From positions 105,770-169,769 of the forward strand of contig MFUV01000004.1 in assembly GCA_001787005.1 (NCBI GenBank): a stretch of DNA of 64,000 nt. The letters run 5' to 3'. Of the stretch, positions 13,429 through 41,858 are shown one piece after another (position 1 is the first letter of the stretch; every line of letters begins with the position of its first letter). The DNA is from Candidatus Nomurabacteria bacterium RIFCSPLOWO2_01_FULL_39_18. Its GTDB lineage: Bacteria; Patescibacteriota; Minisyncoccia; Phycocordibacterales; UBA9973. The notes under the pieces are model-generated. The model made no database searches and was not told the origin of the DNA. It saw nothing but the letters and a program-made list of their open reading frames with translations. The position numbers and the translations under genes were made by a program.

Positions 13429-13502
13429 TCCGTCCTCTTGGATTCGAACCAAGGACCCCAGAGGTATAAGCTCTGTGCTCTAACCAACTGAGCTAAGGAC
13501 GG
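13429..13502 (-). tRNA. tRNA-Ile (anticodon UAU)
   Basis: Manual fold: acceptor CCGTCCT/AGGACGG, D-arm GCTCAGTTGGTTAGAGC, anticodon stem CAGAG/CTCTG with loop CTTATAC, T-arm CTTGGTTCGAATCCAAG, discriminator A; CCA not encoded. Confidence 0.8.
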
Positions 13503-16471: not shown

Positions 16472-16577
16472 GGTATTTTTATATTATTTATTAAAAGTAT
16501 AATTTCGACAAAAAAGCAAAACCTAATTATCCATGATTATAGTACTTAACGCATTAATAGCAAAGTTGTCTTGTATC

Positions 16578-16977
16578 TGTGGAGATGGGGGAAATCGAAT
16601 CCCCGTGCAGAAGGTTATTGCTAAGAAGTCTACATACATAGCGCGCTTGTGGGTTTAAATTAAAAAATTTAGAAACGAGCCAAATATTTTTTAATCGATT
16701 CTCTTTGTTTTGCTGTGACATCGAGAAAGTCGCCACAGCTATCCCGATAATATTATGCCCGCTCTTATATATCGGAAGTCTATAAGAGAGACATCAGTTA
16801 GGCGTAAGCCGAGACTGAAGCGAAAGCAAAGTCCGCCTCACCGAAGTAAGGAGAAATTGAAGCTTTCACTTTAGAAGCTAATTTTGCAATTAACATTTAG
16901 ACAAATTTTTACGAGATTATGTCTATGCTCGGTATGCATCAATAACAAATGACCAACTGTCTATGCCTTGCATCCCC
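16578..16977 (-). ncRNA. ssrA: tmRNA (ssrA)
   Basis: 5' GGGGAUG pairs with 3' CAUCUCC-ACA; T-arm GGGGAUUCGAUUUCCCC; internal ORF ...ADFAFASVSAYA-UAA; lies directly downstream of smpB. Confidence 0.7.
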
Positions 16978-20704: not shown

Positions 20705-21112
20705 TTATACCAGATCTTCTTTGATTGGTTTAAGACTTTTCAGATAATAAAATGAGAAATAAAATATTGCAAAAATTCCGCCAGCTAAATCAAGCAAGAC
20801 ATCAGAGACAGTGTCTAGGACATTGAAAGGATTTTGAATATTGACTTTGTCGACAAAAAATTCAAATATCTCCCAGCAAATGCCCATGGCTAGCACAAAG
20901 AATAAAATTTTAAAAATTAATCTAAAAGAGATGGTGCCGAGCGCAAAGAAATAAATGTATGCCAGCCCAAGCCAGATCCCGCCCAGAAAATGCATAATCA
21001 TATCAAAATACCAAATAGAAGAATACCAGTAGAATTTATTTGCGGAAAAATTCACTAAAAAGATAAAAAAGATGAGGTACGCCAGGTGTTTGAAAAGCTT
21101 TTTTCTATCCAT
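20705..21112 (-). CDS. small polytopic membrane protein, hypothetical
   Basis: Hydrophobic helices; start codon embedded in an inverted-repeat element. Confidence 0.4.
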   Translation of the reverse strand: MDRKKLFKHLAYLIFFIFLVNFSANKFYWYSSIWYFDMIMHFLGGIWLGLAYIYFFALGTISFRLIFKILFFVLAMGICWEIFEFFVDKVNIQNPFNVLDTVSDVLLDLAGGIFAIFYFSFYYLKSLKPIKEDLV

Positions 21113-21240
21113 CCCGTTAGAAGTAGGAAATCTTTAGATTTCCGTAGTTAAATTTATTAATAACAACTATAAGAAACTGGTCCATTATAACATTTCTGTA
21201 ACTTTAATTAACTAAATGACTTCTAACGGGATCCATATCT
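21104..21240. repeat. MITE-like element with terminal inverted repeats ATCCCGTTAGAAGT ... ACTTCTAACGGGAT
   Basis: 14-bp perfect inverted repeats about 95 bp apart; second copy at 40568-40670; the left arm contains the ATG of the downstream gene. Confidence 0.65.
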
Positions 21241-21505
21241 ATAAAAGTAAGAAAAAATCCGCCCGAAGCGGAATCCTTCTTAGGACTATTTCCAATGTAT
21301 TACCGTAGCTCAAAGCTAGGTGGGTGTCAGACAAGCTTGACCAAGGTCAAACCCGATCGAGACTCCCTAAAATTAGTGTTCTAGGTAATAATTGGAAATA
21401 ACCCTACTTTCAGTATAGCAAAATTATGGCGAGGAGCAACTGGACAGAAAGAATTTTTTGTTTCTGAATTAATTATAGAATTTTTGTCGTGATCCTGCTT
21501 AAGAA

Positions 21506-21541
21506 TTGTACATATATACGCTATAGCGTATATATGTACAA
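21506..21541. repeat. 36-bp perfect palindrome TTGTACATATATACGCTATAGCGTATATATGTACAA
   Basis: Self-complementary; directly abuts the stop codon of the last CYTH gene. Confidence 0.85.
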
Positions 21542-22084
21542 TTAAAAACGCATATTAAACCAGTCTAATTCGTATTCTTTTTTAATTAAAACTCTCTCCC
21601 CTTCACCAATACTTTTGTGATCTTCCAATCCGAGTATTTTTATTGCTTCTTGCACATGTTCATGACTTTTCCCTTCAATTTCCAGATAAGCGGGCATCCC
21701 TGGGTACTGATCCAGGTCAAATTGCCAATCCTTTAGGAGGAAAGATGCACGATCTTTTTCTTGATGGGCATAGTGCTCTATCCCGACATTTTCAAAAAGC
21801 TTCCCGGCAAGGATAGCATCACCAACACTTATATTTATCTCGTCAGAATGTCTGGTATTGCCTGTTATTTCTGGTAATGACTTCCAACTTATTTCAGACT
21901 TCCCACCCGTACTAGTTCGAATTCTTAAATACCATGGATCGTCGCCTTCATGGGTCAAACCTTTGGGTCCGTACCAATCGATAACAAGTCTTGTGTTCTG
22001 TATCTCTTTCGCGCCAAGTGCTTTTAACTTTTCTTTTACTTCTTCCTTATCTACATTTAAAACTTTCGTTTCAATTTCGTGCAT
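21542..22084 (-). CDS. CYTH-domain protein (triphosphate tunnel metalloenzyme / CyaB-like)
   Basis: N-terminal HEIETKVL (ExExK), LRIR and C-terminal YLEIE motifs. Confidence 0.7.
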   Translation of the reverse strand: MHEIETKVLNVDKEEVKEKLKALGAKEIQNTRLVIDWYGPKGLTHEGDDPWYLRIRTSTGGKSEISWKSLPEITGNTRHSDEINISVGDAILAGKLFENVGIEHYAHQEKDRASFLLKDWQFDLDQYPGMPAYLEIEGKSHEHVQEAIKILGLEDHKSIGEGERVLIKKEYELDWFNMRF

Positions 22085-29096: not shown

Positions 29097-29124
29097 CAGG
29101 AACGTATGTTTAAAAACTTCTGTT

Positions 29125-29162
29125 CTGTTGTGAAATCACGCATATGCGTGATTTCACAACAG
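29125..29162. repeat. 38-bp perfect palindrome CTGTTGTGAAATCACGCATATGCGTGATTTCACAACAG (putative operator)
   Basis: Self-complementary; TGTGA..TCACA half-sites; 15 nt downstream of the wHTH gene stop. Confidence 0.85.
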
Positions 29163-29177
29163 AGAGTTTAAATAAAA

Positions 29178-31262: not shown

Positions 31263-31308
31263 GCAGATAGAGCTTTAGACTCTAGATAGAGTCTAAAGCT
31301 CTATCTGC
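31263..31308. repeat. 46-nt hairpin GCAGATAGAGCTTTAGACTC-TAGATA-GAGTCTAAAGCTCTATCTGC
   Basis: 20-bp perfect stem between the rplO stop and the secY start; related copy at 35747-35791. Confidence 0.85.
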
Positions 31309-32222: not shown

Positions 32223-32564
32223 TTAAAATTGAAGTCCCAAAGCCCTGGCTTCATCCGCGACTGTTTTGATTCGTCCGGTATATTTAAATCCATTTCGATC
32301 GAAAACGACTTTTTTGATTTTCTTTTCAAGGCAAATTGTTCCGATCAGACGGCCAACCTCTTTGGCTCGCTCCGTCTTTGTTCCTTTTGTATTTTTAACA
32401 TCGCTGGCTGAAGCTATGGTCTTGCCTGAAAGGTCATTAATCACTTGCGCGTAGATAAATTTATTGGAACGGAAAACGGTCAGGCGCGGACGAACATCGG
32501 TGCCCTTTATTTTCACCCTAATTTTCTTCTTCAATCTTATTCTTTTGTTGTTTTTCTTAATCAT
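32223..32564 (-). CDS. rplR: 50S ribosomal protein L18
   Basis: KRIRLKKKIRVKIKGTDVRPRLTVFRSNKFIYAQVI... Confidence 0.9.
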   Translation of the reverse strand: MIKKNNKRIRLKKKIRVKIKGTDVRPRLTVFRSNKFIYAQVINDLSGKTIASASDVKNTKGTKTERAKEVGRLIGTICLEKKIKKVVFDRNGFKYTGRIKTVADEARALGLQF

Positions 32565-32583
32565 TTTTTTTTATTTTCTCCTC

Positions 32584-32638
32584 AAGGTCTTGCCTTGGAA
32601 TCCCTAAAGGCAAGACCTTTTCCCGAAAATTTATACGG
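32584..32638. repeat. hairpin AAGGTCTTGCCTT-N9-AAGGCAAGACCTT + TTCCCGAAAATTTA
   Basis: 13-bp perfect stem; overlaps the rplF stop; second copy at 41805-41858. Confidence 0.8.
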
Positions 32639-35746: not shown

Positions 35747-35791
35747 CAGATAGAGTTTTAGACTCTAGATAGAGGCTAAACCTCTATCTGC
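35747..35791. repeat. hairpin CAGATAGAGTTTTAGACTC-TAGATA-GAGGCTAAACCTCTATCTG (variant copy)
   Basis: Same family as 31263-31308; between the rplP stop and the rpmC start. Confidence 0.8.
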
Positions 35792-39868: not shown

Positions 39869-39920
39869 TACCCCCTCCTTTCTCCTCCCCCTATATAGGG
39901 GGAGGCTGGGTAGGGGTATT
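39869..39920. repeat. nested palindromic element, intergenic copy (rplD stop / rplW RBS)
   Basis: TACCCCTACCCAGCCTCCCCCTATATAGGGGGAGG..AGGGGGTA (minus sense); supplies AAAGGAGG upstream of the rplW ATG; matches the recG insert. Confidence 0.85.
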
Positions 39921-40575
39921 ACCCTCTCGATTCTAAGAATTTTGCACTTTCTGTGGAGTTTTCTATTATGAGATATTTGTAATTTAAAACGTCTAATGGA
40001 TTTATGTTTTTAATAAATATTATATCTAGGATCGGGATATTTCTAAAGCTCTTTTCTGTGTTTTTATTTCGTTCATACAAAGCCAATAAAATTTTTGGTT
40101 TTCTCGTTTCTAGATTTTTCAAGTTCCCCGCCCTTGCCAGATTTTTCATCACTTCTACCGCAAACTTTGTATTTATTCTTGACATTTCAAGTGAATCAAT
40201 AAAAAGTATTTCGTTGTCTTTCAGCTTACGAGATAGGACTGAGAAGAGCGCCTGCGCGCGCATTTTCTTGGAGATTTTTCTTTTATAATTCTTCTCGGCA
40301 AGCGGACCATGAGTTACGCCTCCGCCAACCCAGATGGGGCTCCTCGAAGAGCCGTGTCGCGCTCGTCCTGTGCCCTTTTGCTTCCAGGGCTTTCTGCCTC
40401 CGCCTCGGACTTCCCCACGGCCTTTCGTGTCAGCAGTGCCTGCGCGCTTGTTACTGCGCATTCCTTCTACCACCTGGTGCACTAAGTCACTGCGCCATTT
40501 AGCACCAAAAACTTTCGGGGACAGTGTGATTGTTCCTGATTCTTTTCCTTTTTGATTATGTATTTTTGCTTCCAT
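39919..40575 (-). CDS. rplD: 50S ribosomal protein L4
   Basis: 218 aa; TKGRGEVRGGGRKPWKQKGTGRAR. Confidence 0.9.
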   Translation of the reverse strand: MEAKIHNQKGKESGTITLSPKVFGAKWRSDLVHQVVEGMRSNKRAGTADTKGRGEVRGGGRKPWKQKGTGRARHGSSRSPIWVGGGVTHGPLAEKNYKRKISKKMRAQALFSVLSRKLKDNEILFIDSLEMSRINTKFAVEVMKNLARAGNLKNLETRKPKILLALYERNKNTEKSFRNIPILDIIFIKNINPLDVLNYKYLIIENSTESAKFLESRG

Positions 40576-40670
40576 CCCGTTAGAAGTAGATCGCGATCAA
40601 CTCGCTTTCCTTATATTTAATGTTCTTAATTTTACTAATGGTTAATTTCATACTTTTTTTATTTTTAAAT
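40568..40670. repeat. MITE-like element copy 2 (inverted repeats ATCCCGTTAGAAGT / ACTTCTAGCGGGAT)
   Basis: The left arm contains the rplD ATG; about 63-nt AT-rich interior; one mismatch versus the 21104-21240 copy. Confidence 0.6.
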
Positions 40671-40699
40671 TGCGATCGCGACTTCTAGCGGGATCCATT

Positions 40700-41767: not shown

Positions 41768-41804
41768 GGATTTATTTAAAAGGACAATTTGGATTTTTCT
41801 CCCC

Positions 41805-41858
41805 AAGGTCTTGCCTTAAGGAACCCAAAGGCAAGACCTTTTCCCGAAAAATTTAACC
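41805..41858. repeat. hairpin AAGGTCTTGCCTT-N10-AAGGCAAGACCTT + TTCCCGAAAAATTTA (copy 2)
   Basis: Overlaps the tuf stop codon; identical stems to 32584-32638. Confidence 0.8.

Follow-up and report, generated by a model that had tools for sequence, protein, structure and literature searches.

What places pairs of 14-nt inverted repeats at the start codons of two unrelated genes in Candidatus Nomurabacteria bacterium RIFCSPLOWO2_01_FULL_39_18? The stretch analysed here (64,000 nt of contig MFUV01000004.1, referred to as the window) holds such repeats at the start of a gene for a conserved 135-aa membrane protein and at the start of rplD (ribosomal protein L4). A first-pass annotation had proposed either a small mobile element that donates translation starts or a shared translational control structure. 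Our analysis points to the former, and we consider it probable that both loci belong to a family of tiny mobile elements of Patescibacteria, which insert at start codons, duplicate the dinucleotide G-R, rebuild an in-frame ATG and share their ends with a form encoding a GIY-YIG nuclease, the presumed mobilising enzyme.

Two window loci with the same ends

The exact 14-mer ATCCCGTTAGAAGT was found at 21111-21124 on the plus strand and at 21219-21232 on the minus strand, with a spacing of 94 nt. At the second locus, the same 14-mer at 40574-40587 (plus strand) is paired with ATCCCGCTAGAAGT, which carries one mismatch, at 40681-40694 (minus strand), with a spacing of 93 nt. The arms are complementary at 14 of 14 positions in copy 1 and at 13 of 14 in copy 2. 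Allowing up to two mismatches, the window contains four matches to the 14-mer against 0.35 expected, a number reached in none of 100 shuffles, and the inverted repeats noticed in the first pass are confirmed. No further copy of the element was found elsewhere in the 64-kb window.

Read on the minus strand, both loci have the form 5'-ATGG/ATCCCG(Y)TAGAAGT...ACTTCTAACGGGAT/GGA-3' (slashes mark the element ends), with a second copy of the start codon, ATGG, directly outside the distal arm (21236-21233 and 40698-40695) and with GG as the duplication. The first pass had placed the ATG of the downstream gene within the inner arm. The arm does supply the A and the T, but the G comes from the flank. 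Furthermore, the plus-strand ATG at 21216 opens only a 30-aa open reading frame (ORF) and not the conserved gene, both genes being on the minus strand.

Beyond approximately 20 terminal nucleotides, the interiors of the two copies show no likeness; the copies belong to different subfamilies. In copy 2, the arm stem is lengthened by about 7 bp (about 40672-40680 with 40592-40598; CGCGATC/GATCGCG), which takes the place of a hairpin, P2, seen in copy 1. Both regions fold better as RNA than their shuffles (z of -2.8 at locus 1 and -2.4 at locus 2), and Rfam returned nothing relevant, either at the gathering threshold over the window or at E <= 10 over both loci. Copy 2 was present in all seven contigs of the same species from other samples.

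As a side observation, members of the copy 2 subfamily (also at L041, L094 and L161) carry GCGATCGC on both sides of the interior, at the positions that extend the arm stem. This is the octamer called HIP1 in cyanobacteria; a cyanobacterial context was dropped, as the genes and all related contigs are those of Patescibacteria.

A dispersed family in Patescibacteria

The first pass had considered that only these two copies might exist. This did not hold: the search for the paired 14-mer that it had proposed, carried out on one genome per species with exact arms 75-105 nt apart, yielded at least 119 stretches, all of them in metagenome-assembled genomes of Patescibacteria. Among the matches listed, the carriers comprise Kaiser-, Nomura-, Zambryski-, Yanofsky-, Jorgensen-, Wolfe-, Harrison-, Yonath- and Kerfeldbacteria, "Paceibacterota", Minisyncoccia and others. 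Several single genomes contain at least 4-7 loci each, and the copy density is about 15-30 per Mb, the window having 2 in 64 kb.

The arms, inverted repeats of 14 nt, have in common a 9-nt core that does not vary (CCCGTTAGA / TCTAACGGG). The anatomy of the family was derived from 129 exact-arm copies. In 122 of them, one orientation and no other lets the AT of the element and the G of the flank open an ORF of 30 codons or more; among the rest, four are upstream members of tandem pairs and one is cut by the end of its locus. The flanks follow the pattern ATGR/element/GRA, with a direct repeat of 2 nt in 110 copies (GA or GG, rarely GT), of 1 nt in 7 and of 3 nt in 6. Since the downstream codon is invariably ATG while the upstream copy of the start codon varies (ATG in 111 cases, GTG in 2, TTG in 2), it can be concluded that the AT belongs to the element. 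The 3' junction is exact and the 5' junction shifts by one A. The orientation to the gene is constant within subfamilies, with one exception, and many interiors hold a second CTAACGGG as a potential competitor for the 5' arm.

Tandem copies with abutted ends, joined as ACTTCTAACGGGAT-GR-ATCCCGTTAGAAGT, occur at L105, L108 and L119. Together with those at L038 they share the regenerated ATGR, which indicates that a rebuilt site can be targeted anew. The family combines small non-coding size, terminal inverted repeats (TIRs), target duplication, dispersed copies, empty and filled sites and a coding element with the same ends, as known from MITEs (miniature inverted-repeat transposable elements). 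The window loci are non-coding, MITE-like members of this family, a reading that follows from the existence of a coding form with the same arms and geometry.

Variants of the ends were also seen. The first two of three tandem copies at L038:1579-2023 have an altered 3' arm, ACTTTCGGAGGGAT, which places a GGAGG motif resembling a Shine-Dalgarno (SD) sequence ahead of the ATG. Variant arms ACCCCGTTAGAG.../...CTCTAACGGGGT are found in TTG/.../TGAC(A), a site that is like a -35 box and not a start codon (L048:6979-7030, L053:6797-6875, L063:1789-1918, L080:192-310 and L106:1910-1987), and other ACCCCG-armed copies rebuild GTG starts (L102:2159, L112:212 and L055:2661).

Empty and filled orthologous sites

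For locus 1, 49 metagenomic loci with relatives of the 135-aa protein (40-81% identity) were selected without reference to the arms. About 40 of the 49 are empty. In these, non-coding sequence that includes a terminator is conserved upstream, followed by a TATAAT/TAAAAT box, 6 nt and ATGGAYAGAAAAAAGC (pattern TATAAT-N6-ATGGAYAG). The closest relative of the window locus (L131, 81%) belongs to the empty ones and its start matches the 3' junction in the window, the regenerated start of the 135-aa gene having the same sequence, ATGGATAGAAAAAAGC, as this empty site. Six loci and the window are filled at the identical nucleotide (ATGG/.../GGAC), where L136/L141 carry the 122-nt subfamily of the window and L159, L161/L163 and L170 an 81-nt subfamily with arms ending AGAGAT. 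Two subfamilies are thus found at one nucleotide of this gene start and, as the filled loci are not mutual closest relatives, the same start codon has been struck repeatedly. Three more bystander copies within the 49 loci (two of them unique) are all located at start codons, one of them (L161) being of the copy 2 subfamily.

The comparison of rplC-rplD spacers, likewise suggested in the first pass, revealed the same rplD start, ATGGAAGCAAAAATA, without the element in four relatives (80-84% identical L4). A clean empty rplC-rplD junction (TAAAATGGAAGC) was not found in these relatives, whose spacers of 30-85 nt each contain a different hairpin, and the empty-site proof therefore comes from locus 1. 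A conserved leader in relatives, which would have been another outcome, was not what we saw, as the relatives of rplD and of the 135-aa gene do not carry the element as a leader. The spacers at L127-L130, about 30-85 nt upstream of rplD, seem to be a hotspot of hairpin elements in their own right; the hairpin of L128 contains GTTAGAT...ATCTAAC, the short core that is also present in the arms.

Preference for start codons

The target was reconstructed as (A/G/T)TG-R-A and is nearly always a genuine start codon, in many cases of a leaderless gene. Of the reconstructed targets, 89% have R at +4 and A at +5, compared with 28% of ordinary starts in the same DNA, and a TANNNT box lies 6-7 nt upstream in 45% compared with 18%, a spacing that corresponds to leaderless-promoter geometry. 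The genes downstream are housekeeping genes unrelated to one another, with 106 proteins containing 144 Pfam families, and include those for SSB, DnaB, several aminoacyl-tRNA synthetases, L4, L25, ClpP, CTP synthase, topoisomerase and H+-PPase. Unoccupied ATGRA occurs in the same 922 kb 202 times at called starts, 592 times in non-coding DNA and 4,124 times within genes. About 95% of the elements sit at start codons, for which sequence preference and tolerance together predict only about one quarter. Survivorship could possibly explain this excess, if only precise excision is tolerated at starts and neutral intergenic copies decay.

A coding relative bounded by the same arms

Among the unpaired arms, a 282-nt element with the arms ATCCCGTTAGAGAT/ATCTCTAACGGGAT was found at L038:159-446, inserted as ATGA/.../GAAAATT at the start of murG. 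It consists of a single 95-codon ORF that runs from the captured host ATG to a TGA overlapping the regenerated ATG (GGGATGA) and reads through both arms. A GIY-YIG domain is recognised in the product (PF01541, E = 2.5e-16; score 60 bits, cut-off 22.6). Its homologues fill 2,685 protein clusters; the best 120 of the 2,685 are nearly all exactly 95 aa long, or 86 aa when called from the internal Met10, and are named in databases "GIY-YIG nuclease family protein" or, wrongly, "excinuclease ABC subunit C". In an alignment of 37 sequences (64-79% identity), both arm translations, N-terminal MNPVRD and C-terminal FLSLTG, show little or no variation, and the same holds for Y12/Y14, Y25-T26-G27, R33/R35, H39-N40, E71 and N85. 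The contigs of three more homologues show the ORF at 1201-1488 and the host gene from 1485, with the junctions ATGA/ATCCCGTTAGAGAT...ATCTCTAACGGGAT/GA; the hosts are a 67-aa ORF, ruvX and an ATP-synthase subunit, and the 4-nt overlap is that seen at murG. The arms of the 282-nt form also occur, identical, in the 81-nt non-coding subfamily.

The nearest solved relatives of the product are the UPF0213 proteins BH0048 and EF2693 (1zg2, E = 1.2e-8; 1ywl), followed by SLX1 (7wme and 7cq2, approximately 6e-3). The ORF is located between the promoter or start codon and the host ORF and shares 4 nt with the host ATG region; the Rfam searches detected neither an intron nor a ribozyme family, and the NCBIfam model for group-I-intron endonucleases scored 24.8 against a cut-off of 56. 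Phage carriage was discarded, as neither the coding nor the non-coding form matched in IMG/VR and the ORF had no PHROG match. A transposase entered from the captured ATG as MNPVRS... was also considered and rejected, the profile search with the peptides of the upstream ORFs (uORFs) returning only ten ORFs of 39-61 aa. Small GIY-YIG ORFs devoid of arms, 38-49% identical to the arm-bounded one, were seen at L101:6305-6544, L030:7097-7330 and L020:4413-4622, and these sequences suggest that the genomes contain a larger set of stand-alone GIY-YIG genes.

Constraint and structure of the arms

Arm identity is 28/28 in the protein-selected set, compared with 66-88% for the interiors and 53-60% (saturated) for the third codon positions of the adjacent gene. 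Among 37 copies found via the 9-nt core alone, arm positions 2, 12, 13 and 14 had changed on both sides in 15, 12, 14 and 15 cases, with 2, 0, 4 and 1 mismatches, respectively, and the core CCCGTTAGA was fixed throughout. For 64 aligned members of the 119-127-nt group, RNAalifold predicted the arm stem and the P2 hairpin one nucleotide ahead of the 3' arm. P2 shows GC to AU exchanges in either direction in 11-26 sequences at four of its six pairs, has GNRA/UUCG-type loops, and its G-U pairs outnumber A-C in the sense strand. The covariation of P2 and of the inner and outer arm is compatible with a folded RNA and also with a folded DNA strand.

Expression of the host genes

The retained upstream start may explain how the host genes tolerate the insertion. 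Ribosomes would start at the upstream ATG and, on entering the element, would open the arm stem; the host gene would then stay expressed by coupling to, or re-initiation at, the rebuilt ATG, which has no SD. In the copy 1 subfamily, an internal extended -10 may drive the gene instead. The frame from the upstream ATG across the 5' arm always reads M-(N/D)-P-V-R-S/D. In the 122-nt subfamily with the GGAAGC hairpin, 22 of 29 copies retain 39 open codons ending at a TAA within the 3' arm, 4 nt ahead of the host ATG, compared with a mean of 3.8 and a maximum of 11 for shuffled interiors (stops per frame 46/78/14), which argues for translation of the upstream ATG in this subfamily. Judging from these frames, termination-reinitiation is likely here, and the coding form would pass ribosomes on in a similar way via its ATGA overlap. 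In the window, the uORF of copy 1 spans 10 codons across the 5' arm (MDPVRSHLVN and stop, 21236-21204) and that of copy 2 spans 16 codons (MDPARSRDRNLKIKKV and stop, 40698-40648); a ribosome on these short uORFs would still unwind the 5' arm. An SD-less internal ATG is normal in these organisms, since the anti-SD motif is absent in about half of Parcubacteria (PMC9297842).

The extended -10 of copy 1, TGTTATAAT, is perfect and its position is kept in the subfamily (TGATATAAT, TGGTATAAT, TGTTATACT). Window locus 1 and L136/L141 do not have the native upstream -10 seen in the empty orthologues. The statistics are no more than suggestive, but the internal motif may drive the 135-aa gene in this subfamily, and transcripts from it would start without the 5' arm and leave the ATG unmasked. 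The proposal of the first pass that a long stem sequesters the initiation codon therefore stands in part: the stem is predicted, but it covers only the AU of the AUG, and transcription from the internal motif of copy 1 may omit the 5' arm altogether. As a general trait of the family, an internal outward promoter was rejected, as 29 of the 122 elements have an extended -10 where 20 would be expected (maximum 32), and its coincidence with loss of the upstream -10 gave p = 0.31.

Proposed mechanism and alternatives

We propose that the GIY-YIG nuclease would make staggered 2-nt cuts at the element ends and at the targets, and would mobilise non-coding copies in trans; it would recognise the arms as a stem or cruciform whose core is sequence-specific, and would cut at its base. 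I-TevI, Eco29kI and similar GIY-YIG enzymes leave 2-nt 3' overhangs. The need for arm pairing and the affinity to UPF0213/SLX1 suggest a structure-specific nuclease. More tentatively, and with real doubt on our part, the 95-codon gene could be the transposase of a new class of prokaryotic transposons and, at 282 bp, the smallest autonomous one known. Having no promoter, start or free-standing stop of its own, it would integrate with a 2-nt stagger in starts, preferentially leaderless ones, and be expressed from the captured ATG with a 4-nt ATGA hand-over, and the hairpins of about 80-133 nt, the two window copies among them, would be its MITEs, read as a stem with core by the SLX1-like nuclease.

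Several observations weigh against the mobile-element reading or parts of it. Most copies were ascertained by their exact arms, a bias lessened by the protein-selected loci, and the duplication is not strictly 2 nt. The arm mismatch of copy 2 would be a C-A in the sense RNA, and the long uORF is confined to one subfamily, the window copies ending after 10-16 codons. With about 95% of the elements at starts, the 5-nt target alone cannot account for the occupancy, and extra targeting or survivorship must be assumed. As for the nuclease, the window has no coding GIY-YIG copy, no coding form was found with arms ending AGAAGT (the commonest end of non-coding arms; the coding form has AGAGAT), and the conserved internal Met10 could be the actual start of the protein. 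Homology between coding and non-coding forms beyond the arms is weak (just ...TTTCCT before the 3' arm; in copy 1, similarity rises to the 95th percentile of shuffles solely in the 3' 30 nt), and we infer the link between them from shared arms, insertion geometry, lineages and tandem association.

TIRs, a short duplication, many copies and empty and filled sites are hallmarks that would also be shown by a conventional MITE moved by a classical transposase, be it a DDE enzyme (e.g., IS30-like, where ends abut and duplications measure 2-3 bp) or a serine, tyrosine or IS110-type recombinase with a 2-nt core, and the GIY-YIG ORF would then be cargo or a tenant. The abutted-end tandem junction resembles a recombinase or insertion sequence (IS) circle junction, and the duplication varies by 1-3 nt as in IS30/IS3. 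The flanking dinucleotide, which a sticky-end or core-dinucleotide model would have inherited with the element, weakly tracks element relatedness as well (nearest neighbour 71% versus 57%; chi-square p = 0.11, confounded by orthology). However, about 1.1 Mb of DNA examined contained no arm-bounded transposase-like ORF. The sole coding form is the GIY-YIG gene, whose terminal codons are the arms in 37 of 37 homologues, and a gene with no start or stop of its own is hard to explain as cargo. Compensatory arm changes are also unexpected for duplex TIRs that are bound independently, and we regard this origin as unlikely. An RNA-mediated (retro-)element, with a sense transcript copied into nicked starts by target-primed reverse transcription, appears very improbable. 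Although the exact 3' junction with a 5' junction differing by one A, the orientation fixed relative to transcription and the G-U pairs favouring the sense strand would suit it, no reverse transcriptase is associated, TIRs and abutted tandem junctions are features of DNA transposons, and the partner is a DNA nuclease.

The structural data bear most directly on the other reading of the first pass, here taken as a cis-acting regulatory RNA whose arm-stem operator masks the start until a trans factor or upstream translation opens it, with any spread being secondary. In its favour are the folding of both regions, better than that of their shuffles, the covariation of P2 and its GNRA/UUCG-type loops with a sense-strand excess of G-U over A-C, the much stronger conservation of the arms than of nearby synonymous sites, and the second CTAACGGG of many interiors, which may compete for the 5' arm. 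The constant orientation within subfamilies would fit too, but an asymmetric target also yields it. Against this stand the unrelated housekeeping genes downstream, the patchy and non-monophyletic occupancy with the nearest relatives of both window genes lacking the element, the failure to match Rfam and the existence of a coding form. A translational control structure as the primary nature of the loci is not supported and is, in our estimation, quite improbable; a leader or riboswitch was rejected on the same patchiness among orthologues and unrelatedness of the downstream genes, with structural covariation being present.

Comparison with known systems

Bacterial MITEs such as Correia/NEMIS of Neisseria, enterobacterial ERIC/IRU and pneumococcal RUP share with the family a size of about 100-150 bp, the absence of coding sequence, TIRs, a short duplication and many copies, as well as co-transcription with neighbours, long hairpins and sometimes promoters. 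In contrast to the family described here, they derive from classical IS transposases and are intergenic, whereas our elements sit on a start codon that is rebuilt, leave a second start upstream and have the ends of a GIY-YIG gene. We know of no MITE with such a target and partner.

Free-standing GIY-YIG homing genes (phage T4 seg, I-TevI-type) resemble the coding form in being selfish, consisting mostly of a nuclease and being inserted in a tolerated manner, and a 2-nt stagger is typical of the superfamily. However, homing enzymes have a separate DNA-binding domain and sites of 14-40 bp and spread between homologous alleles by repair, while the coding form has 95 aa (approximately the catalytic domain), a 5-nt target in many non-homologous genes, inverted-repeat ends and non-coding derivatives. 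A homing endonuclease gene was rejected, because only ATG-R-A is conserved in the targets and the insertions lie at many unrelated genes. UPF0213/YhbQ (COG2827) and SLX1 have the same small GIY-YIG domain, and the cutting of branched or stem-loop DNA by SLX1 would fit arm-stem recognition; they are not known to be mobile or repeat-bounded, and the arm-encoded MNPVRD and FLSLTG termini are peculiar to the family here.

Rickettsia palindromic elements are likewise small palindromic mobile repeats tolerated in genes of reduced genomes, but they are translated in frame within the host protein, whereas the present elements stay outside the host ORF by means of the duplicated and rebuilt start. REPIN-RAYT systems similarly have hairpin-forming inverted-repeat doublets that are long kept and a single-gene partner flanked by repeats. 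RAYTs are relatives of HUH/Y1 transposases and REPINs are extragenic, whereas the family has no RAYT and a start-codon site; an IS200/IS605-type PATE or REPIN, which would have a separate subterminal hairpin at either end and no duplication, was rejected, as the ends pair mutually, a duplication of 2 nt exists and the DNA examined contained no HUH gene. Integron attC sites, finally, are imperfect palindromes of variable length with ...CTAAC / GTTAG... cores like those of the arms; they act as folded strands, and their cassettes rely on an external promoter. This candidate was rejected because the order of the cores is reversed (GTTAGA...TCTAAC in the family, against R''(RYYYAAC)...R'(GTTRRRY) in attC) and the copies are single and scattered at housekeeping genes, with neither arrays nor intI.

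In the full-text searchable literature, with subscription-only papers outside it, there was no account of the motif, of MITEs in the Candidate Phyla Radiation (CPR) or of a prokaryotic TIR-bounded GIY-YIG element, and the family is apparently undescribed. The system joins features of MITEs and of homing endonuclease genes with start-codon capture and is a new variant, with a substantial chance of being a new transposon class. GIY-YIG ORFs in insertions of CPR rRNA genes have been reported that are not in introns and are seemingly "outside the context of homing" (PMC11270868); these insertions may be the same elements.

Coordinates and other features of the window

Table 1. Features of the two element loci in the window
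Feature	Position	Strand	Remarks
Element copy 1, non-coding, 122 nt	21111..21232	-	arms: 5' 21232-21219 ATCCCGTTAGAAGT, 3' 21124-21111 ACTTCTAACGGGAT
Retained upstream target copy ATGG, locus 1	21233..21236	-	captured start codon 21236-21234 and duplicated GG 21234-21233
Regenerated start codon of the 135-aa gene	21109..21112	-	element AT 21112-21111 and flank G 21110; duplicated GG 21110-21109
P2 hairpin GGAAATC-TAAA-GATTTCC	21126..21143	-	one nt ahead of the 3' arm of copy 1; consensus fold of 64 members
Internal extended -10-like motif TGTTATAAT	21184..21192	-	faces the 135-aa gene; candidate element-borne promoter
Host gene 1, conserved 135-aa membrane protein	20705..21112	-	leaderless in most relatives
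Element copy 2, non-coding, 121 nt	40574..40694	-	CGCGATCGC...GATCGCGATCT subfamily; arms 40694-40681 (5', ATCCCGCTAGAAGT) and 40587-40574 (3')
Retained upstream ATGG, locus 2	40695..40698	-	1 nt past the rplC stop codon 40702-40700
Regenerated rplD ATG	40573..40575	-	element AT 40575-40574 and flank G 40573
Host gene 2, rplD (ribosomal protein L4)	39919..40575	-	PF00573

Upstream of locus 1, between the CYTH-domain gene and the 135-aa gene, a non-coding region of about 130-170 nt (approximately 21250-21420, minus strand) with an intrinsic terminator at 21272-21258 is kept in nearly all 49 related loci. It has no Rfam match even at E <= 10 and is a candidate CPR small RNA or 3' UTR (untranslated region) element. 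The only Rfam matches in the window are a standard one-piece tmRNA (16577-16977, minus strand, 113 bits) and one tRNA (13429-13502, minus strand).

Further repeats were noted. The hairpin AAGGTCTTGCCTT-loop-AAGGCAAGACCTT occurs at 32573-32630 and 41793-41852 and is followed, on the minus strand, by GAGGAG/GGGGAG and a gene start; the genes behind it are the head of the S10 operon and the gene at 32223-32564, and ribosomal-protein operons may have it in common as a leader or operator. Another family of palindromes (CAGATAGAG.TTTAGACTCTA / TAGAG.CTAAA.CTCTATCTG) lies between consecutive minus-strand genes at 31263-31308 and 35747-35790, and the same type is present in the rplC-rplD spacer of L127. 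Perfect 40-bp palindromes with 20-nt arms and no spacer are found at 21504-21543 and 29124-29163, the first adjoining the 3' end of the CYTH-domain gene (21542-22084, minus strand).

Implications

If the proposed mechanism is true, GIY-YIG proteins of the UPF0213/SLX1-like kind would join the short list of enzymes that move prokaryotic elements, and the minimal autonomous element would measure 282 bp. Tool builders might take an interest in a nuclease that is compact and has a short defined target and a structured DNA handle. For the annotation of CPR genomes, the family would mean that gene starts beside elements, short uORFs and 95-aa calls (often cut to 86 aa) are now misread. For the streamlined genomes of these organisms, the elements would represent a new harmless lodging of selfish DNA in essential genes, in which the start is duplicated and rebuilt and translation is coupled. 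Such hiding at the level of translation would be akin in concept to that of introns at the RNA level and of inteins at the protein level. The copies would also allow leaderless and SD-independent initiation to be studied as a natural experiment in Patescibacteria, where translation is otherwise almost unstudied.

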